Numbered from the stretch's first letter, positions 1 to 18,553 are shown. The stretch: DNA of 37,462 nt from Candidatus Bathyarchaeota archaeon (GCA_026015145.1 JAOZGY010000057.1:1-37462), one strand, 5' to 3'. Made by a program: numbers and translations. The notes: generated by a model from the letters alone, not told the origin.

Positions 1-367
1 AATTAAGATTTCCCACTTCAGTTCTAGCCATTCTAGTAAAAAACCCGGCACTTTCAGGATATTTTAACGCCATCATAAGAAAACTCGCTCCCAGTATCAA
101 GCATATGTTTACTATGTTTGACCCTAGAACATTGCCAACTGAAATCCCGACAGTCTGAGGATTCATGATAGAGAATATGACAACAACAAGTTCTGGAAGA
201 GAGGTGGAAAAAGCAACAAGTATGAATCCAATTTTGGTCTTTCCCAAGCCAGTTACGCTTGCCAGGTTAACTGAATTAGTGATTGTTAAGCTGCTGGCTT
301 TGATTAAGACAACCAATGAGGCAATAAGAACAGCTATGTTTCCTATACTTCCTAGCTGTTCTAACAC
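1..367 (-). CDS. Ca2+/cation antiporter (CaCA, YrbG/NCX-type), N-terminal part; gene runs off the left edge
   Basis: Not in the ORF track (GTG start, truncated by the window edge). Hand translation of the minus strand from GTG at 367 gives VLEQLGSIGNIAVLIASLVVLIKASS...KIGFILVAFSTSLPELVVVIFSIMNPQTVGISVGNVLGSNIVNICLILGASFLMMALKYPES. The G(S/T)SLPEL ... GNxxGSNxxN pattern is the alpha-1 repeat signature of CaCA exchangers. GGAG lies about 11 nt upstream of the GTG. Confidence 0.6.
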   Translation of the reverse strand, partial: MLEQLGSIGNIAVLIASLVVLIKASSLTITNSVNLASVTGLGKTKIGFILVAFSTSLPELVVVIFSIMNPQTVGISVGNVLGSNIVNICLILGASFLMMALKYPESAGFFTRMARTEVGNLN

Positions 368-650
368 TCTTTTGGTTTCTCCTTTAATTCATTGGAAGCG
401 TAATTTAACCAATATATCTGTTTATCTGCTGGGTATTCATTTTTAAATGATTAAAGAAGTCAAAAAGTCATTTCACGTTGCAACTTTGACAGTAATGATA
501 GAATCCTGTCGCTTAACACGTTTAGATTCTGCTTAAAGTAATGTTGAAAAAAGAAAAGAAAGAATTTTTTTAAAAACTGTGTTTGTGCGCATCAAGATAC
601 ATTAAACATATAACCAGTTAAGATAGTTTTCTAATTAGGGAAAGAAGTGA

Positions 651-779
651 ATGCAAAAAAGAACTAAGCGAAAGTGTAAAGGTTGTGGAAAACTATTCAT
701 GCCTGACAATGATTTTCAAGGCTTCTGTTCAGATAGGTGCTACCATATCTTCAGAGGAGAAATAGTACCAAGTGCTTAG
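651..779 (+). CDS. 42-aa zinc-ribbon mini-protein (CxxC ... CxxxC, DUF2116-like pattern)
   Basis: Below the ORF-track cutoff. Hand translation: MQKRTKRKCKGCGKLFMPDNDFQGFCSDRCYHIFRGEIVPSA. Four Cys are in zinc-ribbon spacing and a purine-rich ggaaagaagtga lies just upstream of the ATG. Confidence 0.45.
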   Translation: MQKRTKRKCKGCGKLFMPDNDFQGFCSDRCYHIFRGEIVPSA

Positions 780-970
780 TATAATCTAGCTTTTCGCGCA
801 CATTTAGAGCAACTCTTCTATACGACTTAGCGCGCTTAATTATGACATTTGGCGCCGGGAAATAGGTTTAGATCTCGGTTTAAATTCTCGGAATTTTTGT
901 AGAATGAGTGACGTAGGATCATTCCGCATGGAAAAAAGTTTAAATCTTTTTCGAGTTGATTAAATTATCT

Positions 971-1300
971 ATGACAAAGATGAACAACCTTGAAGACACT
1001 ATCTTTCAAACACTTTATAGACGTAAGGAGAGTATTCTAAAACAAGTTCCAAATTTAGATCCAGAAGATTATTCTCTACTGCTTTATTTAGTTATAGGAT
1101 ATGACTTGGGTAAGGGAAATTATTTTGGATTGATATTCCCTTTGGAAGATAATAGTCATTTAGAGGAATTAAGAGCTTTAAGCAACGGTTATGTTGAATT
1201 TAGAGATGGTGTTGTTAGAATGGGAGTGATTAAGTTAGAAAATTTAGAGAAAATATTGGGAGCTCCCTATATTAAGCCTAGAAGTATACGTTTTTCGTGA
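971..1300 (+). CDS. hypothetical protein (about 109 aa from first ATG; track ORF starts at TTG 956)
   Basis: Open frame with a globular-looking composition. A TATA-like tttaaatc sits about 30 nt upstream of ATG 971. No recognisable motif. Confidence 0.4.
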   Translation: MTKMNNLEDTIFQTLYRRKESILKQVPNLDPEDYSLLLYLVIGYDLGKGNYFGLIFPLEDNSHLEELRALSNGYVEFRDGVVRMGVIKLENLEKILGAPYIKPRSIRFS

Positions 1301-1320
1301 AATCTGCGGGCAGGCTCGTT

Positions 1321-1362
1321 AGTCATTATCGTGATATTGGCAGTCATTATCGTGATATTGGC
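1321..1362. repeat. perfect tandem duplication of a 21-bp unit (agtcattatcgtgatattggc x2)
   Basis: 1321-1341 and 1342-1362 are identical, followed by a partial third start (agtg). It lies about 20 nt downstream of the stop of the 971-1300 ORF. Confidence 0.95.
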
Positions 1363-1787
1363 AGTGAACAAATGTGTAGTCAAATATTTCGGAAAAATCG
1401 TTGCGAGGAAAATCTCAACAACATCTAGCATGTTACCTGCATTGCGAGGGGTAAGTTTTTGCTTCTCGCGCGCCTGTTAAGAGCCTTAGCAACCCCTTTC
1501 TTTTCCTATTTAGCTCCTTATTTGCCTAGAACTTGGATCCGCTATTTTGCTTCTTGTTTTATCTCGATTTTTGAATTTCGTTTTTACTTTAAAAAAAGAA
1601 CTTGACGGGGCTCTCTTGATAGATGTAGAATATGAGCTTAAAGAATAGATAATCAGTTATTTTGCATATAACTATCAAATAAGCTTAGAATAGTGCCCTT
1701 ACCAGGCAACAATTAAAGGTTAATTGCGAATACATCATGAAACCGATATATAGCCATCGAGCCTATAACTCTGAATAGTGATCAATT

Positions 1788-2012
1788 ATGCCAAAATGTC
1801 CGAATTGCACAGCGCACATGCAAGAACCAAATAAAGAATGGGAGTTTGGACGATTCAAAGTAAAGATGTACAAATGCACTAAATGTGGAAACCAATTTAG
1901 AGAACATTTCATGGAAAGTACGTTGAAATTTGTGGTGAGCGCACACAACGGTGGTCTGGGAAAGATAAGAGTGACAAAAGAAACATTAGACAGACATAAG
2001 ACCTATCACTGA
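1788..2012 (+). CDS. 74-aa zinc-ribbon protein
   Basis: CPNC ... CTKC pairs (MPKCPNCTAHM...YKCTKCGNQF) are typical of a rubredoxin-like zinc ribbon. The overlapping minus ORF 1763-1948 looks spurious. Confidence 0.6.
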   Translation: MPKCPNCTAHMQEPNKEWEFGRFKVKMYKCTKCGNQFREHFMESTLKFVVSAHNGGLGKIRVTKETLDRHKTYH

Positions 2013-2056
2013 CTCTTCTCTTTCGCGTGAGCTATTGTTTGTTTTTTTGGGGAATC

Positions 2057-2308
2057 CTATTTGGTTATCTTGGCGTTTGCAGTCATAGTACTTATTTTCG
2101 TGATCTTTATTTTGACACGGTCTCCAGGCTTTGCGTCAGTAACACGTACTACGAAACCTTGGATTCTGGCTATGCCTTCTCCTTGAGGGCTCGTTTCGGT
2201 TATTTCAACTTCGTATTCTTTCCCCATCTCAACCGGGCAGCTCTTGAAGCCTTTGCCATGACCACGTCTTCCCTCATAACTGCCACCGTGTCTTCTACTA
2301 TAATTCAA
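2057..2308 (-). CDS. TRAM domain protein (83 aa)
   Basis: PVEMGKEYEVEITETSPQGEGIARIQGFVVRVTDAKPGDRVKIKITKI matches the small archaeal TRAM pattern (PV..GeeyeV.I......GdGIArv.GfvifV.ga..Gd.VkvkItkv), after a Gly/Arg-rich N-terminus. Confidence 0.75.
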   Translation of the reverse strand: MNYSRRHGGSYEGRRGHGKGFKSCPVEMGKEYEVEITETSPQGEGIARIQGFVVRVTDAKPGDRVKIKITKISTMTANAKITK

Positions 2309-2429
2309 ATCATATTTCTCCTTCTGAATTTATTTTTGGTATAAAACAAATTTTCTCCTATTATGGTTTAGAGATAGACGTTCAAGAGAAAGTCTATAAA
2401 GCGTATAAGAGCTAATCAACATGTGAAGC

Positions 2430-2609
2430 ATGATACTCAAAAAAATTGCGCTAGTAATAGGATTATTTTTGATAGTGATAGCTGTAGTTTTGCTGGATGG
2501 AAACTGGGAAGCAGACATTTTTCCGGTAATCTTGGGATTGTTAGGAATATTTGTTGTAGCCGTTTTTTTCCTAAGCAAGAAGAAAAAGTGGCTAGTATCG
2601 AACAAATAA
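2430..2609 (+). CDS. 59-aa two-TM membrane mini-protein
   Basis: Below the track cutoff. Hand translation: MILKKIALVIGLFLIVIAVVLLDGNWEADIFPVILGLLGIFVVAVFFLSKKKKWLVSNK, giving two clean hydrophobic helices and a Lys-rich tail. It reads better than the three overlapping track ORFs at 2330-2701. Confidence 0.4.
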   Translation: MILKKIALVIGLFLIVIAVVLLDGNWEADIFPVILGLLGIFVVAVFFLSKKKKWLVSNK

Positions 2610-2749
2610 TAGACTTTACAATGCAAGCTGTTTTTGCTAGAATTAATATACTTACGCCAAAGTATGGGGACAACATTTGTTTTCTCTATCCCTAGAAGCA
2701 CTAGTATTATCCATAGAGCGTTGCAATAATGTAAGGAGAAAGAATCTGC

Positions 2750-2944
2750 TTAGCGTGGGTGTTTATTAAATGCCTTAGCAGTATAATGGGAGTTCTTTGT
2801 CCCGCATGTTCCACAAAACTTCTCAGTTATAACTACAGGATTCTTGCATTTTTCGCAATCGTAGAGCAATTGCGTGCCACAAGTCGTACAATATTTCTTC
2901 TCCATATTATCTGATCCGCATAAGCACCTAACCATATTCAACAA
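2750..2944 (-). CDS. 64-aa double zinc-ribbon protein
   Basis: Successive CxxC-type pairs: CTTCG, CEKC, CGTCG (KYCTTCGTQLLYDCEKCKNPVVITEKFCGTCGTKN). Confidence 0.55.
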   Translation of the reverse strand: MLNMVRCLCGSDNMEKKYCTTCGTQLLYDCEKCKNPVVITEKFCGTCGTKNSHYTAKAFNKHPR

Positions 2945-3720
2945 CCAGATTGCTAGTGTCTGCTCCTCGTTCTTAAGTTATTCTGAGGTTTTTAATAGAT
3001 AAACATAGAGGCGAGACACACAGACAGGCAAAATACACACTCACACTCGGGTATACATAAATAAATACATGTAGAATATGAGAAGGAAAAAGATTAAATT
3101 TTAATCCTTAAATTATCTGATGTAAACGGCGAGATTTTATAGAATATATCGAGATTCTAACAGTCCACCAGTACTACTCTTTACATGGTTTCATCTTTTT
3201 TATTTGGATAAGAAGTTTAAACCTTTCCTGCACAAAAAAACCTTAGCCTAAAACATAAGAAGAATAGGACATTTTTAATGAAATCTTCTTTTCTCTTTAT
3301 TATCAGAGTAAAAAAAGGGGGCTATTAATATAATGTGATATATAATAAGCCACACACACAAAAAGAAACACTCGGAAAATATATGGAAAAACCATGAGAG
3401 AGCTGGCTTTCGGTTCATTGGACAACTAAACTCATTCTAGGACTGGAACTTTCTCGGGATCTCGTTCACTCCTGGAGAGTCCTTGCAGTCACTAACAGTT
3501 TTAAATGCATTTCAAAGAACTCAGAGCTCATCAAACAGCTAAGGATGCTGTGCATAAAAGCTACTCTTAATCTGATACATTTTCCTTGTGCAAATGATCG
3601 GTTTCTCATTATTAGCCAAACTAGAGATTTGATGACGAAGCTGAACAATTAATGCAAAAGTTAAAAGCATCGTTGTCTAAATATGGTTTGTATATCATTA
3701 CTGAAATTACCAATTTTAAG

Positions 3721-3746
3721 TTGGGTCTTCGGGTGACATCTCCACT
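3721..3746 (+). repeat. tRNA-like repeat family, short type-2 copy (5' module only)
   Basis: ttcgggtgacatctccact (3728-3746) is identical over 19 nt to 6009-6027. The upstream ttgggtc resembles gtgggat of the 6000 copy. Confidence 0.6.
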
Positions 3747-3823
3747 GCCCAAACGTAAGTAAATTGACAAATGGCACAACTTTTTAAAGAACATAATATG
3801 CTTCAATTATGGGTGAAGTTTGA

Positions 3824-4087: not shown

Positions 4088-4330
4088 TTAGCCGACTAAT
4101 TCGACTGTTGTTCCTAACGCCTGACCCGGTACTCCTTTCTTGAATTTGACTCTAACAACGCCGTTTTTTCCATGTAAACCTGCGATTTTCCCAATAAACT
4201 TCTTGTTTTTTCCCTTCCAAACCACTTTTTGACCTATGAGGTGTCCTGCCTGAGCTACTAAATCTGCATGGGCAAATTGAATTAGACATTCTCTTGAAGA
4301 TTGTGTTCGGATGCCTATATGATAGTTCAT
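4088..4330 (-). CDS. rpl35ae: ribosomal protein L35Ae (eL33)
   Basis: MNYHIGIRTQSSRECLIQF...LIGQKVVWKGKNKKFIGKIAGLHGKNGVVRVKFKKGVPGQALGTTVELV matches the L35Ae signature (G.I...HG..G.VRa.F...lPg.AiG..v). The start is placed at the internal ATG (4330), because the 26 extra N-terminal residues of the track ORF (to 4408) do not resemble the family. Confidence 0.8.
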   Translation of the reverse strand: MNYHIGIRTQSSRECLIQFAHADLVAQAGHLIGQKVVWKGKNKKFIGKIAGLHGKNGVVRVKFKKGVPGQALGTTVELVG

Positions 4331-4481
4331 TATTCTTCCATAAACTGGTTGGGACAAAACTTTCACCTTTGTAAACTTTACATAATAATACCCCTTGCTT
4401 TTAAACATGTTTCATTTAGCTTTAGCGTTATGCTTGGATCGTGCATGCTCGAGGAAGGGGGGAGGAAATTAAATTTTATCC

Positions 4482-4638: not shown

Positions 4639-5868
4639 TTACCTGATTTTCCTTAGAGCCTTTTTTGCAGTTTTTCGAACTTCCTCATACTCATCCTCTA
4701 ATGCATGAGTCAATGATTCTTTTGCCCTTGCATCGCGAATCTCGCCAAGAGCCTGCGCTGCAGCCCATCTAATCAAGCGGTTATTATCCTTCAGGGCTTG
4801 AATGAGGGGTTCCACTGCTGGTTTTCCAATCTGTATAAGACCATCAAATGCAACGTTCCCGACGGGTCTCTCTAAATAAAAAGTTTTAGCAGGACTGCCT
4901 ACTAGAGTTAATTTGATTCTGCGCATGCCGCTTCTGGTGTCGCGCAGCACACGTATCGTGTCTTTAATATGTAAAGATTGAATCAGAGGCTCTACCGCAT
5001 GGCGTCCGTATCCGATTATTTCATTCCAATCTTTCTTGAGTGTACCCTCCTTGCCTAAGGACATATTTGCAAATAGATAATAGACTCTCTCGGTAGTATT
5101 TGCGGGATTCCAAGATAGCTTTTTAAGAACCCTCACTGAAGATTTTCGAATACCCCAATTCTGATCTTTTAGAGCTCGTACGAGAGGTTCTATTACCCTT
5201 TCATCGTTCAATGCTCCAAGTGCATCCACTGCAGCTTGTCGAGAATAAACATTTTGTGTTTCATCTTGGAAAACTTGCACAAGAGGTTCTATTGCCCTTT
5301 CATCACCTATACGCTTGAGAACTTTTGCTGCAGGTGCCTGAACCGTCCAATCTTCGTCCTTTAGGAGTTGAATTAATGGCTCTACTGTTGGCTCTCCAAT
5401 GTTTTCAAGTATTTTCCAAACTTCAAAGAATGGGTTTGTTCGTTCGTTTACAAATTTCTCTTTCATAGCCTGGATTAATGGATCTATCGCTGGTTTTCCA
5501 ATTCTCACAAATACTTCGTGTAACTCATCAATCTCTATATGTGATACGTTCTTAAGGGCTGAAATATTTCCAGGTTGTCGTTCCATTATAAAGGCGCGTC
5601 TCCTTTCATAATCCTTCATCGCGTACTCTAAGGCTTGAATCAGAGGATTTACTGCAGGTCCTCCCATTTCCGTTAGATCATCCCACGCCTTCTTAGCCAT
5701 CAAGTAATGCACCTTCTCCGTGTCATTGCCCGCTTTCCAGCCTATCCTGTCAAGGGCAAATGCTGACGACTCTCGGATTTGGTATTTTCTATGCTGCAGA
5801 GCCTCGAGTAACCCCTTTACATCCTTCTTCTGTTCCATTTTCTTGATGTTCGGTCCGAAAATTCCCAT
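4639..5868 (-). CDS. HEAT / PBS-lyase-type repeat protein (409 aa)
   Basis: About seven repeats of the unit (V/I)(E/D/N)PLIQ(A/L)LKD...VR..AA.ALG.I.D.RA, for example VEPLIQALKDNNRLIRWAAAQALGEIRDARAKESL. Confidence 0.8.
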   Translation of the reverse strand: MGIFGPNIKKMEQKKDVKGLLEALQHRKYQIRESSAFALDRIGWKAGNDTEKVHYLMAKKAWDDLTEMGGPAVNPLIQALEYAMKDYERRRAFIMERQPGNISALKNVSHIEIDELHEVFVRIGKPAIDPLIQAMKEKFVNERTNPFFEVWKILENIGEPTVEPLIQLLKDEDWTVQAPAAKVLKRIGDERAIEPLVQVFQDETQNVYSRQAAVDALGALNDERVIEPLVRALKDQNWGIRKSSVRVLKKLSWNPANTTERVYYLFANMSLGKEGTLKKDWNEIIGYGRHAVEPLIQSLHIKDTIRVLRDTRSGMRRIKLTLVGSPAKTFYLERPVGNVAFDGLIQIGKPAVEPLIQALKDNNRLIRWAAAQALGEIRDARAKESLTHALEDEYEEVRKTAKKALRKIR

Positions 5869-5992: not shown

Positions 5993-6050
5993 AAAAAAAG
6001 TGGGATTTTTCGGGTGACATCTCCACTCTGGCAAGGATTCAAATCCAGAC
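5993..6050 (+). repeat. tRNA-like repeat family, type-2 copy with degenerate T-loop hairpin
   Basis: The order is an A7 run, gtggg, cgggtgacatctccact (6011-6027), then tctgg-caaggattcaaat-ccaga, where ggattcaaatcc (6035-6046) parallels ggggttcgaatccc of the long copies. It directly abuts the GC-rich katG segment. Confidence 0.7.
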
Positions 6051-6111
6051 TCAAACAGATTTGGGCCGGGTTGCTTACCATATTATCGTCGTTAGCTATC
6101 TCTTGTTACGA

Positions 6112-8328
<2,217 letters not shown>

Positions 8329-8398
8329 TTAAAAGTTAAGTTTCACTGTCTCTTTCAAATTGTGTGATAAATTGTTAAAATTTTATTATATTAATCTG

Positions 8399-8516
8399 AA
8401 AAAAATGGGGGGGTTTGCGAGTGATATCTCCACTTGGTATAGGGTTCGAATCCCACCTCGCCCGCAGCTTATTTTCCAAAATAGAGCACAATTTAGAGTT
8501 ATTTTGGCAAAAAAAG
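8399..8516 (+). repeat. tRNA-like repeat family, long copy B
   Basis: The order is an A7 run, tggggggg, then the 50-nt core at 8417-8466 (47/50 identical to copies C and D), then a tail cttattttccaaaatagagcacaatttagagttattttggcaaaaaaag related to C and D apart from a 4-nt indel. Confidence 0.9.
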
Positions 8517-8693
8517 ATAAACAGAACAATAACCAATGTTTGCGACTGTCTTTTACGGCTCTACTGGCAGGGTTTGGTGTCTCGTAATCCAGTAAAAACA
8601 GAACACCCAGGAAGACCACAATTCACATACGCCATAAATCAGAAGGGAAAAGAAAGGTTATCCTATTGGGATTTGCACTCCATGCAACCATGA
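8415..8693 (+). CDS. possible small winged-helix (PadR/MarR-like) regulator, 92 codons, TTG/GTG start inside repeat B
   Basis: The C-terminal part, NVCDCLLRLYWQGLVSRNPVKTEHPGRPQFTYAINQKGKERLSYW, fits the recognition-helix plus wing pattern L..L...GLV.r......GRP..Y.it.kG.e.L. The N-terminal 17 codons are the repeat core itself, so the gene may be real, a fusion or a remnant. Confidence 0.3.
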   Translation: MRVISPLGIGFESHLARSLFSKIEHNLELFWQKKINRTITNVCDCLLRLYWQGLVSRNPVKTEHPGRPQFTYAINQKGKERLSYWDLHSMQP

Positions 8694-9433: not shown

Positions 9434-11077
9434 CTAATGAGTTGTGTAAATATATAGTATTTTACTAAAGGTTTCAAGTTCTTTTTTTGATATCCAATTT
9501 TGTTTTTCTAATTCTATTAGTCCTTTCTTAACACCTACGCGCAATCGTTTTTTTAGAAGTATACTGGCTTGAATTCCAGTTTCTGTAATATCTTTTTCGA
9601 GCATAGGATTTCTTTCAATAAGCGGTACTAGCTGATTCAAAAATTTCATTATAGCCTTTGAACGAGATTGAAGTAAAGCTTTCAGTTTTGAAGCACCAAG
9701 GGCTCCCTTCATTTTTGTTAAGAGCCCCATGTCTCCAATCAATGTGGGAGGATATACAATGTATCTTTTTTTGTCGTTTTCTTCGTATCGAGCAAGGTAG
9801 AATGGGAGATAAACCAATACGCGCAACCGACTTTTTCCAGTTATAGTTATTGTGTCGAAAACTTTTGGAAATCCTCTTTTTTTATGAATCATATTCCGAA
9901 TTGAGCTAATTATTTTATTGGTGAGATCTTCTAGTAGGACTATTTCTTGTTTCTTTGTTTTAATTTTGGCATCTCTGGCTGCTTGAAGGCGTGAAAATAT
10001 TTTCCGGATAGATTCGATGTGTTCGTCGCATTTAGCCTTTTGTTGCGCAATTTCAAGTTTCAGAGCATTATCAATTTTCAGCTTTCTTTTGGAGTTTGCT
10101 TCGATTTTTTTGTTGAGAGTTGGCAGTTTCTTCTTTATTCTTTTTAGCTTTAATTTCCATTGGGCTTTTTTATGTATTCTTTTGGAGCGTATTTTTGTTT
10201 CGCATCGTTTTGCTTCTACTTTTAGATATCTAAGAGTTTTTTGTAGCTCAACCTTACTTTCCTGGAGGTTTTGGAGGTTTTTCTTGAATTTTTTGGATTT
10301 TCTAGCAATTTTTTTATTATATTTACTTTGGATTCGCAAGATTTTTTTCTTAACTTTAGGCTTGGTTCTCTCAACTTGTTTTCGATATTTATTTTGAGTT
10401 TCTCTGATTTCTGTTCGAATTTTTTTGATCTTTCGTATAGTAATTAATTTCAGAAGCTTCATGCTATTGTCTAAGTTTTTTATGTCTTGGGCATTTCTTT
10501 TTCCTAGGTTTGAGAGCTGATTAATACTATCTTGGAGTTCAAGGTTTTTTATTGTGGCATCTAAAACTACTTTGTTAGTTAGGTACCTTTTTGCTTTCTT
10601 CATTTCATTAAGATAGGTTTTGAAATCTTCCATGAGAGCGGAGTTTGTCATTAGAGCTTCAATCTTTATTTCCTTCTTGCTGCTGAAATTTTTGAAATAA
10701 TCTTTGTTTCTGATGAGAGTTGCGGTATAAGATTCGGTTGTTTTTTGGTTTTTCTGGAGGTCTTTGTCAAATATTGCAGAGTCGGGTATTGTATCGTAGG
10801 AGAGCGTATGTGAAGCGAGACCGAGTCCGTCAAATATCAAAATTGCCCCTTTAAAGGGAACCAACCAAATAGGATAACATGCTTTAGCTACAAAGACAAG
10901 TTTCTCGTCCATTTTTTTTAAAACACGATTTTCTCCTTTCTTTCTCTCGGATTCAACCAAGTAAAGGATGGCTGCCATTTCCATATTTTTTGTGAAATTT
11001 GTGAATCTTTTAGCAGCCAGCGTGGTGAAGGGTACTATAACCCCTCTTTTTTGTTCTTTGTCTGGATGAATAAGCAT
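9434..11077 (-). CDS. Lys-rich coiled-coil protein of unknown function (547 aa)
   Basis: Long ORF. The N-terminal (about 1-130) and C-terminal (about 400-547) parts look globular. They flank about 270 aa of heptad-like, extremely K/R/Q/E-rich sequence (KIKKIRTEIRETQNKYRKQVERTKPKVKKKILRIQSKYNKKIARKSKKFKKNLQNLQ...). I recognise no catalytic motif. Confidence 0.7.
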   Translation of the reverse strand: MLIHPDKEQKRGVIVPFTTLAAKRFTNFTKNMEMAAILYLVESERKKGENRVLKKMDEKLVFVAKACYPIWLVPFKGAILIFDGLGLASHTLSYDTIPDSAIFDKDLQKNQKTTESYTATLIRNKDYFKNFSSKKEIKIEALMTNSALMEDFKTYLNEMKKAKRYLTNKVVLDATIKNLELQDSINQLSNLGKRNAQDIKNLDNSMKLLKLITIRKIKKIRTEIRETQNKYRKQVERTKPKVKKKILRIQSKYNKKIARKSKKFKKNLQNLQESKVELQKTLRYLKVEAKRCETKIRSKRIHKKAQWKLKLKRIKKKLPTLNKKIEANSKRKLKIDNALKLEIAQQKAKCDEHIESIRKIFSRLQAARDAKIKTKKQEIVLLEDLTNKIISSIRNMIHKKRGFPKVFDTITITGKSRLRVLVYLPFYLARYEENDKKRYIVYPPTLIGDMGLLTKMKGALGASKLKALLQSRSKAIMKFLNQLVPLIERNPMLEKDITETGIQASILLKKRLRVGVKKGLIELEKQNWISKKELETFSKILYIYTTH

Positions 11078-11224: not shown

Positions 11225-11340
11225 AAAAAAGGGAAAGTTGTGCGGGTGATATCTCCACTTGGTATGGGGTTCGAATCCCACTTCGCCCGCAGAAAGCTTA
11301 TTTTCTAAAATAAAGCCCAATTATGCGTTATTTTGACAAA
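11225..11340 (+). repeat. tRNA-like repeat family, long copy C
   Basis: aaaaaagggaaagtt, then the core at 11242-11291 (gcgggtgatatctccacttggtatggggttcgaatcccacttcgcccgca), then the tail gaaagcttattttctaaaataaagc... 11242-11316 is identical to 16773-16847. Confidence 0.92.
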
Positions 11341-11362
11341 AAAAGCAAATAAAATAAAAGTG

Positions 11363-12694
11363 TTAGTCCCAGGGTCCAGGCCAATCAGGGAACATGTAGG
11401 TTGCTCCTGCTTCTTCCATAATTTCTTTAGGATATACTGGCACTCTTGCTCCATCTGCCTGCCATTGGAAGAACAGAGCCTGCGTATACCCGGGTCCAAA
11501 CATAAGGTCGTGGGAAGATGTGAACATAAAGCGTGGTGAATCAGTGGTTTCCAAAGCTGTTTCTTCTACAGCTTCGATGACAGCATCAGTTTCTATTGTT
11601 CCAGCTCTCTCGATAGCATCAGGCAAAATATAGCGTACCGTATCATACGCGCCGTGTACCAAAAAAGTTGGTGAATGACCCCACCTGTCAATAAAATCGG
11701 TACGAACTGGCAATGTTTTATTAGTCCATGGGTACCCTGCGACAAACGGGGACACCATAGTGGTTGTACTCCCACACTTTCCATCCGTCCATTCCCAGTA
11801 TTCATTCGCTTGGGCCGTTACGTCGACTCCCCAAACAACGAAGGGTGACTGACGATCATACCACTCTTTAATAGCAAATATGGAATCCTGCGCGCCGATT
11901 AGAGGGATCAATATTTCTGTTCCCGCTGCTTCAGCTGCTGCAAAATAGCTTGTGAAGTCCGTGGTTCCCGTCGTAAATTGACCGCGGTAGACAATGTCAA
12001 AATTGTAGACCTCAGGTAAATAATAATCCAAACCCGCTCTTATGCTCTCAGTCCAAATACGATCCTCAACTAAGTAGGCGATCTTATTAAAGCCAGTATA
12101 TTCTCTTAAAACTACTAAACTATCAAGGATCTCCCTAAAGATTGCTGTTGAGTTTGGTGGGGTGACTCTAAAATAGTATTTATATCTACTATAGTCATCT
12201 AACACACGTTGGGTTAAGGCCTCACCGCCTGCTGCGAGGCTTAAGAAGATTATCTTGTGCTCGGCTATGATGTCCTGCATCATCAGCATGGCGTCGTCTC
12301 TAAAGCCCCCTATTACGTAATCCACCTTATGGAAGGTTATCAACCTCGTTAAAGCGGTGCTTACTTTAATCATGTCCACTATCGGCGCCGCTTCATCAGT
12401 ATCCTCACCAACTATCTCAAGATATCTTCCCAAGACACCGCCTTCAGCATTAACCTGTTCAGCAGCCAACACAGCACCCTCCCAAACATCTTTCCCCCCT
12501 AACTCATCTAAATCGGCACAAACCCCTATCTTGATGGTTTGCGTCTGCTGCGGTTCCTGAGTCAAAAAAACATAAACAGTTCCAGCTACAACAGAAGAAA
12601 CAGCAATCACAGCAACCAATATTATCGAATGAAATTTAGTTAATGCCACAGAATTAAACATAAACCACTTATCCACAAAAACAGTATCAAACAA
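11363..12694 (-). CDS. orphan ABC-type substrate-binding protein, Leu/Ile/Val (LivJ/type-I PBP)-like, membrane anchored (443 aa)
   Basis: An N-terminal TM helix is followed by IKIGVCADLDELGGKDVWEGAVLAAEQVNAEGGVLGRYLEIVGEDT and VDYVIGGFRDD, typical of the branched-chain amino-acid binding-protein fold. No permease or ATPase genes are adjacent. Confidence 0.75.
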   Translation of the reverse strand: MFDTVFVDKWFMFNSVALTKFHSIILVAVIAVSSVVAGTVYVFLTQEPQQTQTIKIGVCADLDELGGKDVWEGAVLAAEQVNAEGGVLGRYLEIVGEDTDEAAPIVDMIKVSTALTRLITFHKVDYVIGGFRDDAMLMMQDIIAEHKIIFLSLAAGGEALTQRVLDDYSRYKYYFRVTPPNSTAIFREILDSLVVLREYTGFNKIAYLVEDRIWTESIRAGLDYYLPEVYNFDIVYRGQFTTGTTDFTSYFAAAEAAGTEILIPLIGAQDSIFAIKEWYDRQSPFVVWGVDVTAQANEYWEWTDGKCGSTTTMVSPFVAGYPWTNKTLPVRTDFIDRWGHSPTFLVHGAYDTVRYILPDAIERAGTIETDAVIEAVEETALETTDSPRFMFTSSHDLMFGPGYTQALFFQWQADGARVPVYPKEIMEEAGATYMFPDWPGPWD

Positions 12695-12810
12695 AACAAA
12701 TATAACACTTTTTAAAAATTAACTTTCGAAAACAACTATACTAATAAACCTCAAACATCAAAGATTAGAAAATTATTTAGTGATTCACATGCTATATAGA
12801 GTGAGCAGCC

Positions 12811-15800
12811 TTGCAAAACAATAACCAATCCGTACCTCTTCTTAACAAAGCGAAAGAGTTGGAGAAGAAGTATAAGTGGCTTGAGGCTGCAGATTTTTAC
12901 GAGAAAGCTTTAGATTTAGCGTTGAAGATGGAAGATTTCTTGAAAACTGCTAAACTTAGCGAACAGCTTGCCTTCTGCTTTTTTAGAGCTGCTCTACAAG
13001 CCCAGACAAACGAGGAATTCAAAAGAAGAATGAAACTGACTATCAGGACCTATGAAAAGGCGGTTAAACTTTTTGAGATGGTTGAGAAAGATGGAAAAAG
13101 AGCAAAAATCAACCATTCTAAAGCTATGGTCGCCTATTCAAGTTTTTGGCTTGCAAAAAATCCATCGAAAAAGAAGGATTTGCTTGATGAGTGGTGGAAA
13201 CTTGAAATTGAGGCTTTAAAGGATTACGAGGAAGCCGGTGACCATCTTTCCGTTGGGAGGATATGTAACAATCTCTCGGAAGGTTCCGCACAAAGAATAA
13301 ATTTTGCATCAGATTGGCTGAAACTGGAGAAGAGGATAGAAGAGGGATTTAGTTATGGAGAGAAAGCCATCATGGTATTGGCGAAGGTGGGAGAGGAACA
13401 TGAACTGGCCACTGCCTATTGTTGGACGAGCTTTTGCTACGTAGTGGCTCTGTGGTATAGGGTGATGGAAGATAGGAGAGGGGAATTCGGCAAAAAATGC
13501 CTAAACTATTCAAGGAAGGCTTTGACACTTTCCAAAAAGACTGGAGATGCATATCTAATTGGTCATTCAAATATGTCAGCAGGACTTGCAGAATGGGGTT
13601 TCGTTGGCAATCCTTTTTCTGCGTTAGATTTTTTTAAGGAGGCTCGAAAACATGGTGTAATCGCAAAGGATAATTTTTTGATCGGCATAGCGAGTGTATG
13701 GATGACTTTCAACAATAATCATGTTATGAATCTAGAAGAAGACCCGGATAAACAAAGAGAAGGATTCAAAAAATCCAAGAAATTTGCTCAGGATGCTATC
13801 CACCATTTCCGGATAGTCGTAGGTTATCCCTACTTCCCCTTTGCTTATGATGTGTATTCTAGGAGCATTATGTCGTTGGCATTAATTGAAACTAATCCTG
13901 TAGTAAAAAGCAATCTTTTGGAAAAAGCGGTTAAAGTGGCGCGGAAGGGTTTAGAAGATAGTGAGCGATGGGTGTATACAAATCCTTCCATTATGATTCT
14001 CGAGGTACTCACATTTTTCGTAGTTGTTTTATATAGGCTTTCCGAAATGGAGATGAAAATCAACGAGAAAAAGCAACTCCTTGAAGAAGCTTCAAAATAT
14101 ACTGAAAAAGAGTTCAACATTCGACAACGATTAAGTCCTTTTGATTACTGGAATAACAGTCATAACCTAAAAAACAGAGCATTGATACAAGCTAAGCTAG
14201 CTAAAATAGAAACAAAACAAGAGAGGAAACAGAAACTACTCCAGAAAGCGGTTTCAGCCATGGAAGAGTGTTTGAAACTAGTTGAAAAAGATATAAAGGA
14301 TATTCCTCCAGGTTGGAAAAACCGTTATGTTGGATCATACTATTGTTGGTACGGAGGAACCTTGGAACAATTATACCTGTTAACCAAGGATAAAAAGATT
14401 TTAAATAGAGCAATAGAAGTCTACCAGAATGCCATCGAAACATATAGCAAAGTAGAGTTGAAGACCCGTGAGGCAGAGTCCCACTGGCAGATAGCTAAAC
14501 TCCAAAACCTCCTCGGAGATAACCTAGAAGCTGCTCGCAACTACGAATCAGCAGCCGAAAACTACAAGCTTGCAGCAGAAAAAATTCCACAATTAAAAGA
14601 ATTCTATCAAGACTATTCAGATTACATGCAGGCTTGGAGTCAAATAGAACAAGCAAGACATAATCACTCAATTGAGGAATACGAAAAAGCTAAAGAATAT
14701 TATGAAAAAGCTGCGAGGCTTCATGAAACATGCGAACCTTGGAGTTATCTAGCTTCTAACTATTTGGCTTGGTCCATTGTTGAAGAAGCTGAAGGCTTAA
14801 GCAGAAAAGAAAACACTCAACAAGCAAAAGAAGCATTCCAAAGAGCCTATCAACATTTTGGAGAATCTGAAAAATCCATCAAACAAAAGATCAAGGAAAT
14901 CACATCCATAGACGAAAAAGAAATGACTCAAAGACTGCTCAAGACTTCGGATCTTAGATCTAAATATTGTCAAGCAAGAGTCCTACTTGAAGAAGCAAAA
15001 TTGTTGGATAGAAAAGGCAAATATCTACAAAGCTCAAAAAACTATGGAAAAGCAGCAGAAAAAATTGAAAGTATCATTGAACAGATAGATACTGAATCAG
15101 AACGCAAAGAACTAAAAATAATTGCGGTTTTATGTCGCGCGTGGCAAAAAATGGCAAACGCAGAAGAAACAACATCCTCACAAGCATACTTGGAAGCTGC
15201 ACAACTCTTTGATCAAGCAAAAGAACTAAGCGTCACTAAAAAAACAAGTCTTTGGGCACTAGGGAATAGCAGTTTCTGTAGAGGATTGGCCGCTGAGAAC
15301 AAGTTTCAGAACACTCTCGAGAAATCATTTAACTCAAAAGCTAATAAATACATGAAAAATGCCTCAAGTTATTACAAAGAAGCAGGTTTTCATAATGCTT
15401 ATGAGTTTGCTAAGGCAACACAGCGACTTTTCGATGCATATTTGTATATGAATAGTGCTGAAGATGAAGTTGATCCTGAGAAAAAAACAAAATTCTATCA
15501 ACTCTCTGAGCAGCTATTGCAGATTGCTGCAGGCTCTTTTATAAAAGCTAAACAACCCGAGAAGACAAGTGAAGTTCAAAGAATCTTATCTACTGTCCGA
15601 GAAGAAAAGGCTTTGGCCACCTCTTTAAATCAGGTTATGCGAGCACCTTCTATTGCTTCAAGTACTTTGTCTTTTGTAGCTCCTACTCCAACCAGTGAAG
15701 TATCAGCAGGATTGGAACAATTTGAACATGCTAATATCCAAGCTAATCTAGTCACACATGTTAAGCAAGTTAAAGTTAGGGAATCTTTCTGTTTGAGCGT

Positions 15801-16749
15801 AGAGTTTGTTAATGCGGGTAAAGAGCCTGCATTATTGACTAGGATTGAAGAGCTTATTCCCAGAGATTTTGTTGTAGTTAAGAAACCTGAAATCTATCGT
15901 CTAGAAGATACTTGCCTAAATATGAAAGGAAAACAGCTCGCACCCTTAAAATTAGTGGAAGCAAAACTTGTTCTTCAACCATCAAGAAAAGGAGTCTATC
16001 AACTAAAACCAAAAGTTCACTATTTAAATGAAATTGGACAAAAGAAATCTCTCATATTGAAGTCTATTGAGATCAAGGTTGAAGAAGTTGTTCTTGCTGA
16101 TCGTGTCTCTACTGGAACCAAAGAGCTAGACTCACTTTTGCTAGGAGGCATCCCAGAAAACTATGCAATAGTATTAACTGGACCTCCAAACGATGAAAGA
16201 GAACAAATAATAAAAAACTTCCTAAAAGCAGGAACCAAACAAAACCAACCCACCTTCTACGTCACCACACAAGCAACCAGCCCAAACAACCTACTAGAAA
16301 AATCTAGCCTTCACCTTTTCTTGTGCAACCCCAAACCAAAAACTCAAGTCCCAAACCGTCCAAACATCACCAAGCTAAAAGGAAAAACAAACCTCACAAA
16401 CCTAAACATAGCCCTATTCAAAACCTACCGGAACATAACCTCAAATAAATTGAGGATCTGCAACGAGATTGTTTCTGATGTTCTCCTGGATTATGGGGCG
16501 AAAACAACTAGAAAGTGGATTGCTGAAATGATCACTGATCTAACATCAAAAGGCTTTACAATACTAGCTGTGATTAATCCTTTGATGCATACTTCAGAGG
16601 AATTAAATGTTGTTTTGGACCTATTTGATGGAGAAATCAGAATCACTCAAACTAAAGATGCTTTGGAATGTAAGAAGTTTATACAAGTAGAGAAACTAAG
16701 AAACCAAGACTACATAAAAAATCCAATATGCCTAACAAAACAAGCATAG
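12811..16749 (+). CDS. 1312-aa multidomain protein: long TPR-like helical repeat region, beta-sandwich-like segment, C-terminal KaiC/RecA-like domain with degenerate Walker A
   Basis: About 950 aa of helical-hairpin repeats (AxxYYEKA / AxxNYExAAExY motifs). A segment VKVRESFCLSVEFVNAGKEPALL...LKPKVHYLNEIGQKKSLILKSIEIKV looks like a CARDB/Ig-type sandwich. The tail STGTKELDSLLLGGIPENYAIVLTGPPNDEREQ aligns to the KaiC/RadA-like G...LD.lLgGGip.gs..litGppGtGKT, but GTGKT is replaced by NDERE. The first in-frame start is TTG at 12811. Confidence 0.8.
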   Translation: MQNNNQSVPLLNKAKELEKKYKWLEAADFYEKALDLALKMEDFLKTAKLSEQLAFCFFRAALQAQTNEEFKRRMKLTIRTYEKAVKLFEMVEKDGKRAKINHSKAMVAYSSFWLAKNPSKKKDLLDEWWKLEIEALKDYEEAGDHLSVGRICNNLSEGSAQRINFASDWLKLEKRIEEGFSYGEKAIMVLAKVGEEHELATAYCWTSFCYVVALWYRVMEDRRGEFGKKCLNYSRKALTLSKKTGDAYLIGHSNMSAGLAEWGFVGNPFSALDFFKEARKHGVIAKDNFLIGIASVWMTFNNNHVMNLEEDPDKQREGFKKSKKFAQDAIHHFRIVVGYPYFPFAYDVYSRSIMSLALIETNPVVKSNLLEKAVKVARKGLEDSERWVYTNPSIMILEVLTFFVVVLYRLSEMEMKINEKKQLLEEASKYTEKEFNIRQRLSPFDYWNNSHNLKNRALIQAKLAKIETKQERKQKLLQKAVSAMEECLKLVEKDIKDIPPGWKNRYVGSYYCWYGGTLEQLYLLTKDKKILNRAIEVYQNAIETYSKVELKTREAESHWQIAKLQNLLGDNLEAARNYESAAENYKLAAEKIPQLKEFYQDYSDYMQAWSQIEQARHNHSIEEYEKAKEYYEKAARLHETCEPWSYLASNYLAWSIVEEAEGLSRKENTQQAKEAFQRAYQHFGESEKSIKQKIKEITSIDEKEMTQRLLKTSDLRSKYCQARVLLEEAKLLDRKGKYLQSSKNYGKAAEKIESIIEQIDTESERKELKIIAVLCRAWQKMANAEETTSSQAYLEAAQLFDQAKELSVTKKTSLWALGNSSFCRGLAAENKFQNTLEKSFNSKANKYMKNASSYYKEAGFHNAYEFAKATQRLFDAYLYMNSAEDEVDPEKKTKFYQLSEQLLQIAAGSFIKAKQPEKTSEVQRILSTVREEKALATSLNQVMRAPSIASSTLSFVAPTPTSEVSAGLEQFEHANIQANLVTHVKQVKVRESFCLSVEFVNAGKEPALLTRIEELIPRDFVVVKKPEIYRLEDTCLNMKGKQLAPLKLVEAKLVLQPSRKGVYQLKPKVHYLNEIGQKKSLILKSIEIKVEEVVLADRVSTGTKELDSLLLGGIPENYAIVLTGPPNDEREQIIKNFLKAGTKQNQPTFYVTTQATSPNNLLEKSSLHLFLCNPKPKTQVPNRPNITKLKGKTNLTNLNIALFKTYRNITSNKLRICNEIVSDVLLDYGAKTTRKWIAEMITDLTSKGFTILAVINPLMHTSEELNVVLDLFDGEIRITQTKDALECKKFIQVEKLRNQDYIKNPICLTKQA

Positions 16750-16755
16750 AATAAG

Positions 16756-16871
16756 AAAAAAGGGAAAGTTAAGCGGGTGATATCTCCACTTGGTATGGGG
16801 TTCGAATCCCACTTCGCCCGCAGAAAGCTTATTTTCTAAAATAAAGCAAAATTAAAAGTTATTTTAGCAAA
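16756..16871 (+). repeat. tRNA-like repeat family, long copy D
   Basis: It begins 7 nt after the stop of the 1312-aa gene. The core is at 16773-16822. Over 92 nt it is identical to copy C except for 2 nt (aa vs gt just 5' of the core). Confidence 0.92.
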
Positions 16872-17176
16872 AATGGTTAAAATTAGAAATAAAAAAAGGA
16901 AAAAGGGAATTCGTAAAAAAGGGAATGTTGTTTACTGATCTTCTTTACTTTATAGGTACTTTCTCGAATGGCAATAACTCCGATTTTAAACCTGATTGCG
17001 TATTCATTCCGGCAAATGCTACTTTCAACGCTTCTAAGTTTTCGGTCTTCCAAGTACACCAAAGTAATTTTCGATCATGAGCAAGCCAGAAATCTTGTAA
17101 CTCTATGAAGTAATCTAACAAGTTTATGAAAAACAGTTAAAGCCAAAAATCACCTATCCAATAGAGGTGTTACTAA

Positions 17177-18553
17177 ATGGATGATGAAATTGATCTCGTA
17201 ATTATTGGTGGAGGAACAGGTGTTTTTGCTGCTTCCTTAGCTACGAAGATGGGTTTGAAAGTTGTTATTTTGGAGAACAGAAGAATCGGAGGGGTCTGTT
17301 TAAATTGGGGTGGTCTTGCAACCAAAACCCTAACCTCAACTGTAGAGTTATTTAGAAATGTGAAAAAAGCAAGTAATAACGGAATAAATGGCTCTTTGTC
17401 TCTTGATTGGAAAGATATGAAAAAATACAAAGACACAATTTGTTCTCGAATGTCTAAGATGCCTGAGATTCTATTAAAAAAAGCTGGAGTAAGAATCATA
17501 AAAGGAAATGGAGAAATCCTGACTCCAACAAAAGTAAAAGTAACCTCCGATATTTAAGAAGAGGTCATAAAAACTAGAAACATTTTGATTGCATCAGGGT
17601 CACAACCTATAACAATACCTGGAGTTCAACTAAAAGATCCAATACTAGACAGTGATCAATTACTAGAACTGGAAAATCCTCCAAAGAGCTTGCTAATTAT
17701 TGGAGGAGGAGTCATCGGATTAGAATTTGCAACAATCTTCAATCTTCTAAATACCAAAGTAACAATTGTTGAAATGCTTCCAACATTATTGCCTAATGAA
17801 GAACCCGAAATGGGAGAATTTCTATTAAGGCACCTAAAAAAAGAGGGAATGGAGGTTTTTGTCAACAGCAAAGTAACTCAAGTCACACAAATCAACGATA
17901 AGGTAGATGTGAAAATACTCACCCCAAAGGAAGAGATAACAAAGAATGTGGATAAAGTCTTGATGGCAGTGGGTAGAGGACCAAATATCAATAGAAAACA
18001 CCTAGAAACTCTAGGAGTAAAGACAAGCAAAAGAGGAATATTAGTTGATGACAAAATGCAGACCTCAGTAAAAACGATTTGGGCCACAGGGGATGCTGTG
18101 GATCCTCATCTTCTCGCAAACGTTGCAATAAGAGAAGCAAAAGTAGCCGTAGCTAACATCGCAGGGGAGAAAACAAAAATGGACTATGGTCTTATTCCCC
18201 GATGTGTTTTCACAATACCCGAGACCGCAGCAATTGGATTAACCGAAAAACAAGCAAAAGATCAAGGATTAGATATCAAAAGTGTTAAAATTAATTTTGG
18301 TGCTCAAAACTTTCGGGCGTACGCATCAAACAAAACAGAGGGCTTCATAAAAATTATCATTCTTGATGATGGAAAGATTGTGGGAGCAACAATAGTAGGC
18401 GCTTCCGCAAGCGATTTGATATCAGAATTTACCTTAGCAATAAAAAATAAAATGACAGCAAAAGAAATGAGTGATCTAGTTTACGTCCACCCATCATTTT
18501 CAGAAGTCTTACAAGTAGCACTCGAAAAAATACTAGGAATAGCCCTAGTATAA
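17177..18553 (+). pseudogene. dihydrolipoamide dehydrogenase-like FAD/NAD(P) disulfide-oxidoreductase family gene interrupted by one in-frame TAA
   Basis: Track ORFs 17177-17557 and 17585-18553 are in the same frame (offset 408 nt). The only interruption is TAA at 17555-17557 (...KVKVTSDI*EEVIKTRNILIASGSQPITIPG...). Family motifs are present: GGGTGVFAA (FAD), IIGGGVIGLEFA (NAD), TGDA, and C-terminal HPSFSE. The redox motif reads GGVCLNWGGLATK, so the second Cys of the canonical CxxxxC is Gly. Confidence 0.75.

Follow-up and report, generated by a model that had tools for sequence, protein, structure and literature searches.

Co-oriented repeats on a Bathyarchaeota contig join the 5′ end of a tyrosine-integrase gene to the 3′ end of a tRNA gene

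We analyzed a contig of 37,462 nucleotides (nt) from Candidatus Bathyarchaeota archaeon (GCA_026015145.1 JAOZGY010000057.1:1-37462; this whole stretch is called the window), in which two near-identical direct repeats, copies C and D, flank a gene for a LivJ-like periplasmic binding protein and a gene for a 1312-amino-acid (aa) TPR protein with a KaiC-like domain. The repeat consists of an integrase-gene 5′ end joined to the 3′ end of a tRNA gene. The source tRNA gene, where seen at the same locus, lies upstream and the repeat downstream; the copies are co-oriented; and the genes between them have an atypical composition. We hold with good confidence that the repeats are integration scars, int(N)+attR, in which the first codons of an integrase gene are fused to a tRNA 3′ copy, resembling tRNA-Arg(CCU) in copies B, C and D. 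A first-pass annotation of the window had described them as long direct repeats around a cassette-like unit and had named an RNA gene family as the contrary possibility; they are neither generic long repeats nor an RNA gene family.

Repeats C and D

Copies C and D are offset by 5531 nt. Reading the sequence directly and recomputing it gave the layout that the first-pass annotation had described. A 15-nt sequence, AAAAAAGGGAAAGTT, is common to both (11225-11239 = 16756-16770) and is followed by a 2-nt mismatch (GT in C, AA in D), an exact run of 75 nt (11242-11316 = 16773-16847) and about 25-30 nt of decaying similarity. A repeat search gave 92% identity across 118 nt. Two long open reading frames (ORFs) were found in between, 11363-12694 on the minus strand and 12811-16749 on the plus strand, in agreement with the annotated pair of genes, and copy D does start 7 nt past the stop codon of the 1312-aa ORF.

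11225-11342, plus strand: copy C, probable int(N)+att scar, with an A-run/G-run leader at 11225-11239
11240 and 11246, plus strand: two GTG codons, possible starts in copy C; the short ORF 11246-11308 reads MISPLGMGFESHFARRKLIF and then stops
about 11260-11291, plus strand: tRNA-Arg-like 3′ segment of copy C, T-loop GGTTCGAATCC at 11268-11278
to about 11342, plus strand: AT-rich conserved flank of copy C
16756-16873, plus strand: copy D, structure as in copy C, GTG at 16777, short ORF 16777-16839
about 16791-16822, plus strand: tRNA-like segment of copy D, T-loop at 16799-16809

Over the family profile, C and D are 97% identical, compared with 86% for B and C, 84% for B and D, and 69% for A2 and C, so that the two are indeed closer to each other than to other copies. 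Their identity is the highest among 40 adjacent pairs (median 73%) and lies above the 99th percentile of all pairs. As an outlier it fits a recent recombination event, as had been proposed; many dispersed copies of equal identity, the other possibility raised at that time, were not found.

The repeat is an integrase 5′ end joined to a tRNA 3′ end

The complete case was found at another locus, L031. There, a tRNA-Arg(CCU) gene (5517-5593) continues without a stop and in frame into a tyrosine-recombinase ORF (GRGFKSHPAR-LDLHPL...). A copy of the element lies 2 kb downstream of the tRNA. Its 3′ part is the variable loop, T-arm and acceptor strand of that tRNA with one mismatch, and its 5′ part, GTG-ATA-TCT-CCA-CTT, encodes M-I-S-P-L in the frame of the tRNA-integrase ORF. 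Because the frames match, an excised circle would restore a continuous integrase gene across the attachment site. The integrase body, int(C), thus lies beside the tRNA and the first codons, int(N), at the far end, with direct repeats of the tRNA 3′ end. At two further loci the tRNA likewise leads into an integrase: the integrase gene call overlaps tRNA-Leu in L135, where scars follow 5-8 kb downstream, and tRNA-Arg in L136. The segment 5517-7660 of L031 is a minimal integrated element of about 2 kb. It comprises tRNA-Arg, the integrase body and a single gene for an N6/N4 DNA methylase and ends in the stub; a second stub lies 124 nt beyond the first.

When the rebuilt L031 protein was used as a query, 1631 PF00589 integrases were returned. 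The N-termini of these relatives are translations of the tRNA T-arm in all three frames. Copies C and D translate as MISPLGMGFESHFAR. Other family members show the T-arm in the remaining two frames, as WVRIP and GSNP, or are read through entire tRNA genes. Examples of such N-termini are P0010, P0012, P0003, P0084 and P0093, among which P0010 (..TSPLGLGFKS.., RVTSPLGLGFKSLPARH) and P0012 (TSPFGMGFKSHPAR, RETSPFGMGFKSHPARI) use the same frame as C and D. The intact P0012 integrase gene, on L119/L120, opens with AAAAAAAGGGTGTGCGGGAGACATCTCCATTTGGTATGGGGTTCAAATCCCACCCCGCCCG, which is the element itself including its tRNA-like segment, and has no tRNA gene nearby. The attachment site therefore lies within the integrase ORF.

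In ten cases the tail of a copy equals, over 14-32 identical nt, the 3′ end of a tRNA at its own locus. Each time (10 of 10), that tRNA lies 0.3-6.4 kb upstream of the copy and shares its strand. Among 137 chromosomal copies scored, the ORF from the GTG had a median length of 22 aa and none ran into a full integrase. In L054 the copy retained 67 aa, which match integrases significantly (E = 2e-10). In L031, int(C) loses just the leader and about 5 codons, and the next 10 or so codons are re-supplied by the tRNA; with a loss so small, inactivity of the split gene is not obvious.

Several gene calls run through whole tRNAs (P0004/L135 10001-10960, P0043/L136 10001-11191, P0019, P0028 and P0093). 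The affected deposited integrases bear spurious N-termini, which are translated tRNA-Leu or tRNA-Arg.

The element family in Bathyarchaeia

A pattern of the conserved core was compared with a species-representative genome collection. It returned at least 114 stretches, almost all of them from Bathyarchaeia metagenome-assembled genomes (MAGs), and the family counts below rest on these loci, with 180 copies. There are several loci per genome. The aligned copies share a strongly conserved 5′ module of an A-run, a G-run and nTG-CGG-GTG-AYA-TCT-CCA-C, followed by about 10 variable bases, GGGTTCRAATCCC and a variable tail. The tail classes look like tRNA acceptor 3′ strands and often end in CCA:

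tail class ..CCAGTCCA(CCA): G3:U70 signature of tRNA-Ala
tail class ..CCCCGCCCG(CCA): tRNA-Arg
tail class ..CCCCCGCA(CCA)

A further recurrent tail class, ..TCTGTCCTCTATCTG.TTAG.ACTGGTGGG, was present in L038 and L078. Tails within one array often come from different tRNAs or from other targets.

All 66 adjacent pairs were co-oriented (p ~1e-20), with a median spacing of 1.38 kb and often one gene per unit. The genes in between were mixed, 57 on the strand of the copies and 49 on the opposite strand. Co-orientation of the copies together with mixed gene strands indicates a process acting at the level of DNA. For every integrase body there are more than ten scars, and the units are far smaller than complete mobile elements and usually lack an integrase.

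Genes for secreted proteins some 1000 aa long were the commonest neighbors of the elements, with 45 such genes at 27 of the loci (for example L002 1085-4081). These proteins have a membrane anchor at the C-terminus and match PQQ-propeller and Ig-like domains weakly. TrmB-like regulators came next, at 10 loci. A motif, GGGTTTGCTGAGGCTCTGG, recurs 70-110 nt downstream of the elements in L012, L013, L040, L079, L080 and L114. The sole match on a viral contig, L115, lies inside a portal-like gene and was discarded as chance. We found no paper describing this element or this integrase type in Bathyarchaeia.

The array in the window

The first-pass annotation had treated C and D as a bracketing pair. 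They are members 5 and 6 of an array whose copies, six or more, are all oriented along the plus strand; the profile search (nhmmer) gave starts at 3718, 4481, 5992, 8399, 11224 and 16756. Besides C and D, the array comprises the following:

3686-3747, plus strand: leftmost partial copy, 5′ module only, with GTGACATCTCCAC at 3733-3745; upstream of it is an alternative conserved GGT.TATATCA...TCTTCGG, also found in L012, L013, L042, L084 and L089
4482-4553, plus strand: copy A1 ("type 2"), leader AAAAAATGGGGGTTTGCGGGTG and then hairpin TTATCTCAAGCTTTCACTTGAGTTATCAC
5995-6075, plus strand: copy A2, shared 5′ module, T-loop-like GATTCAAATCC and a differing tail, CCAGACTCAAACAGATTTGGGCC
8400-8517, plus strand: copy B, 84-86% identical to C and D over the profile, tail CCCACCTCGCCCGCA, tRNA-Arg-like as in C and D
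16915-16948, plus strand: degenerate 5′-module stub, AAAAAAGGGAATGTTGTTTACTGATCTTC, 42 nt past copy D

The tails of B, C and D are thus tRNA-Arg-like, and A1 and A2 carry others that recur in other genomes. A1 is 89% identical to copies in two of these (L078 97-163 and L045 5489-5554). It has a leader as in the integrase stubs and, in place of the T-arm, a perfect hairpin, CTCAAG-CTTTCA-CTTGAG. The A2 tail (within 6036-6075) is not a normal acceptor strand; its presence in L045 and L079 as well suggests a possible origin from another target gene. The downstream flank of B is that of C and D apart from a 4-nt indel. Copy B also opens a 92-aa ORF (8415-8693), which we rejected as an integrase N-terminus since its resemblance to integrases is confined to the first 17 residues.

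The contig is archaeal in its genes (L35Ae, DUF996, DUF7504) and has about 35% GC. At its left end, positions 1-3700 contain no ORF longer than 125 aa and no Pfam match; this part may be degraded or non-coding DNA.

Genes in and beside the array

11363-12694, minus strand: gene for the LivJ-like periplasmic binding protein (candidate cargo gene 1), PF13458, GC content at third codon positions (GC3) 0.42
12811-16749, plus strand: gene for the 1312-aa TPR protein (candidate cargo gene 2), C-terminal KaiC-like domain PF06745 at residues 1099-1300, GC3 0.34
6112-8283, minus strand: gene for catalase-peroxidase KatG, between A2 and B, GC 0.54, GC3 0.60
9434-11077, minus strand: gene for a 547-aa protein (p547), between B and C, no Pfam match

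The genes of the array have GC3 values of 0.32-0.60 and those of 17 core genes to its right have a median of about 0.24 (Mann-Whitney p = 1e-4). The LivJ-like gene exceeds all 17.

At the DNA level, L106 3732-6189 matches the KatG unit (5993-8448) with 82% identity. Copy A2 marks the beginning of this homology and the T-loop of copy B its end, so that its boundaries are at the sites. The gene for p547 adjoins KatG in L071 too, in reversed order, and KatG is also near elements in L061 as well as in L071.

The KaiC-like domain of the 1312-aa protein lacks a Walker A motif. The first-pass annotation had called the LivJ-like gene an orphan. That description does not hold, as the LivJ-like and TPR/KaiC genes form a conserved pair in other Bathyarchaeia (L116-L118), tandemly repeated in L117 and L118. 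This recurrent pairing suggests a possible ligand-sensing module. A giant TPR/KaiC homologue with 35% identity is encoded between two co-oriented elements on L131, a metagenome contig that is unrelated to the one studied here; the second element lies 29 nt past the stop codon of that gene.

A gene for ribosomal protein L35Ae (4088-4408) also lies within the array, with the partial copy at 3733 to its left and A1 to its right; its GC3 of 0.34 exceeds that of most core genes. Directly to the right of the array, a pyridine-nucleotide-disulphide oxidoreductase gene (17177-18553) has a single in-frame TAA at 17555-17557 (..KVTSDI*EEVIK..) and could be a pseudogene or carry a sequencing error.

How the array and the C-D segment may have formed

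In the mechanism that we propose, a free element would carry its attachment site inside the reading frame of its integrase gene. This site would duplicate the final 30-35 nt of a tRNA gene, from the variable loop through the T-arm to the 3′ strand of the acceptor. A crossover in the T-loop/acceptor region, either with a tRNA gene of the chromosome or with an att copy left by a previous event, would split the integrase gene. Its body would remain beside the tRNA (attL), and the promoter-proximal leader, the start codon and the first codons, int(N), would end up with a second tRNA 3′ copy at the far end of the insert (attR) as the scar. The leader may act as a promoter or a ribosome-binding site. 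Over several such events, attR scars would line up in a single orientation, separated by cargo genes.

For C and D, the differences on the outer left (GT versus AA) and the outer right (after 11316) would be consistent with a Campbell-type insertion of a circle with a near-identical site. Recent recombination at the site would leave C and D near-identical on both sides of the crossover region. The pair of genes most likely arrived, or underwent its latest rearrangement, in such an event; the integrase was presumably supplied in trans, because none is encoded on the contig. The two genes are plausibly cargo, and we lean, by a modest amount, towards the C-D segment having entered as one recent insert. 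As for the first-pass annotation, its view of the repeats as recombination sites stands and the excisable, cassette-like segment that it proposed is plausible, but the bracket is not unique.

Several observations weigh against this account. The element integrase has PF00589 as its sole Pfam match at E ≤ 0.01 and does not match PF16795, the family assigned to the SSV, pTN3 and pT26-2 integrases (PMC8371274). On the contig, ARAGORN found no tRNA gene and no Rfam family was detected, so that the tRNA anchor of the array is unseen. No integrase body or remnant was found there either, by tblastn or by a profile search of all six frames, and the enzyme is likewise unseen. The geometry of int(C) at a tRNA thus comes from other loci, and for this array both anchor and enzyme would lie elsewhere. 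A simple tandem-integration model expects an integrase body after each internal scar; the stop codon of the LivJ-like gene lies just 21 nt past copy C. The approximately 50 nt common to B, C and D beyond the tRNA-like part are not demonstrably integrase coding. The composition of the two genes, on which the first-pass annotation had suggested that an insertion could be judged, is only mildly atypical: their GC3 is above the core median, but the codon usage of the KaiC gene is near that of the core genes, with a root-mean-square (RMS) distance of just 0.09. Finally, the conserved pair in L116-L118 is native and has no elements beside it.

Some of these points would also fit an alternative in which C and D are old, independent scars made near-identical by gene conversion or homologous exchange, and the two genes are residents. 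Besides the element-free pair and the core-like codon usage of the KaiC gene, the identical tract is short (75 nt) and has decaying similarity on either side, as conversion tracts do. We regard this alternative as unlikely, though it is the strongest of the rivals considered here. Adjacent copies are not homogenized, since their median identity is 73% (40 pairs) versus 71% between loci, and a recent event is the simplest reading of the C-D identity. The LivJ-like gene with a GC3 above all 17 core genes and the similar TPR/KaiC gene bracketed by elements in L131 also argue against residence.

Relatives carrying both genes at the same locus without flanking repeats had been named by the first-pass annotation as evidence against an insertion. 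The pair was found without repeats, which agrees weakly with that expectation, but at 60-73% protein identity and at other loci. The contig makes up its whole record, and the collections contained no close relative of it; the nearest homologue was 68% identical, and looking up the exact LivJ-like and p547 proteins returned no entry. Among metagenome contigs, the exact C/D-type site had no match, and a relaxed pattern returned 14 loci with no close relative among them.

Beyond the integration model, we tentatively raise the possibility that these arrays are a working gene-cassette system distinct from integrons, in which units without an integrase are moved in trans by Xer-like integrases. Each unit would carry a hybrid site, whose left side is the integrase leader and whose right side is the 3′ end of a tRNA. 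A circle freed by excision between two scars would contain such a hybrid site and the intervening chromosomal genes downstream of the tRNA, and an Xer-like integrase with an att site inside its own gene could re-insert that circle at any compatible site. A system of this kind would account for the mixed tails within an array, the missing integrase bodies and the random gene orientation, and for units (KatG, p547 and the giant TPR/KaiC gene) that are shared with other genomes and occur in other orders. It would also cover the high ratio of scars to bodies, the small units and the flank of about 50 nt shared by B, C and D. If it is true, the retained leader would put an outward-facing promoter and a start codon at every junction.

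RNA genes and integron sites as alternatives

The repeat could also be read as a tRNA-like small RNA gene with an acceptor-like stem, a small hairpin and a T-arm, in which case selection on the RNA would preserve the likeness of its copies. The 5′ sequence GCGGGTGA of B, C and D does pair with TCGCCCGC over 8-9 bp around the T-loop GGGTTCGAATCCC. The copies are intergenic with no orientation bias to flanking genes, and many tails end in CCA. Most of the family does not support such a structure, which we consider very improbable. A closing stem of at least 7 bp is present in 24 of 117 copies and a T-stem of at least 5 bp in 20 of 117, about chance beyond GGG/CCC. Folding z-scores were unremarkable (~-1.4), and RNAalifold gave no consensus fold. 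ARAGORN detected no tRNA at any element, and Rfam gave nothing at gathering thresholds, just a 13-nt T-arm match with E = 2. The sequence is explained instead as the 5′ end of intact integrase genes, and the tails as the 3′ ends of real upstream tRNAs; the co-orientation of 66 of 66 pairs is a DNA-level signature.

Other candidates of this kind were examined and dropped. A tRNA, a tmRNA or a known RNA family was ruled out by the negative ARAGORN and Rfam results. For a split, permuted or intron-containing tRNA, no consistent partner for the acceptor-like tails was found within ±250 nt; two perfect partner matches to tails were an opposite-strand tRNA-Val fragment and a chance site. Readings of GGTGAYATCTCC by eye as a C/D-box, a K-turn or a Shine-Dalgarno/anti-Shine-Dalgarno sequence were given up, as the coding frame explains its conservation. 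A 5′-UTR (untranslated region) element or a terminator was ruled out by the lack of orientation bias to neighboring genes.

A classical integron, with the repeats as attC sites of an IntI-type integrase, would match the co-oriented sites separating 1-2 genes at a median spacing of 1.4 kb and the KatG unit common to two genomes with boundaries at sites, but it is the least probable reading of all: the sites have no R″-L″/L′-R′ imperfect palindrome (the 8-9 bp stem is in Arg-type copies only), the integrase scores 49-55 bits against the TIGR02249 integron-integrase model with its cut-off of 265, genes between sites are on both strands, and the contig has no intI or attI.

Relation to known integration systems

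SSV-type archaeal integrases were reportedly described by She et al. in 2001. In the type I suicidal integrases (SSV1/SSV2, pTN3 and pT26-2), attP is inside the gene, and integration at a tRNA separates an int(N) part from an int(C) part (Badel et al. 2020, PMC7253208; PMC8371274). Excision then needs an intact copy in trans (PMC7253208, PMC8371274). These integrases are described as a trait of hyperthermophilic archaea, with the exception of five Methanosarcinales homologues, and Bathyarchaeia are not listed as hosts (PMC7253208, PMC8371274).

The elements studied here resemble this type: attP falls within the reading frame of the integrase, integration targets the 3′ portion of a tRNA, int(N) ends up at attR and int(C) at the tRNA, and scars and trapped elements accumulate. 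They differ in the enzyme, which belongs to PF00589, near XerA, and not to PF16795. All its NCBIfam matches were below cut-offs, the best being XerA-like, and its best matches in the PDB were XerA, 4a8e and 5hxy. The hosts are Bathyarchaeia of soil, peat and sediment and not hyperthermophiles. In addition, the Bathyarchaeia int(N) is tiny, the leader plus about 5 codons, and int(C) keeps nearly the whole protein; the scars are more than ten times as numerous as integrase bodies and are packed into dense arrays. The known suicidal logic is thus found here in a different, Xer-like integrase lineage and a new host group, in unusually dense arrays.

Tandem or accreted elements at tRNA hot spots have been reviewed (PMC8371274), and tRNA gene fragments at such sites are covered in PMC9897764. 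The arrays are similar to these in that an intact tRNA is followed downstream by uniformly oriented direct repeats of a tRNA 3′ segment, and foreign genes lie between the repeats. In contrast to such elements, the Bathyarchaeia units are tiny (median 1.4 kb) and mostly lack an integrase, and the tails within one array are often mixed. With the attC arrays of bacterial and archaeal integrons, the arrays share co-oriented sites and small units that recur elsewhere in different order (KatG, p547). They differ in site structure, integrase family and mixed gene orientation, and no attI/Pc platform was seen. The cassette idea of the first-pass annotation was partly right, but for a specific and largely known reason.

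Implications

In soils and sediments, Bathyarchaeia are among the most abundant archaeal groups. Their scars flag hot spots of integration that contain acquired genes, such as KatG with 54% GC in a genome with 35% GC, and provide a simple sequence tag to map horizontally acquired DNA in Bathyarchaeia genomes. For annotation, gene callers that extend integrase ORFs through whole tRNA genes create spurious N-termini. If the units without an integrase are mobile, they would constitute a second kind of gene-cassette platform besides integrons.

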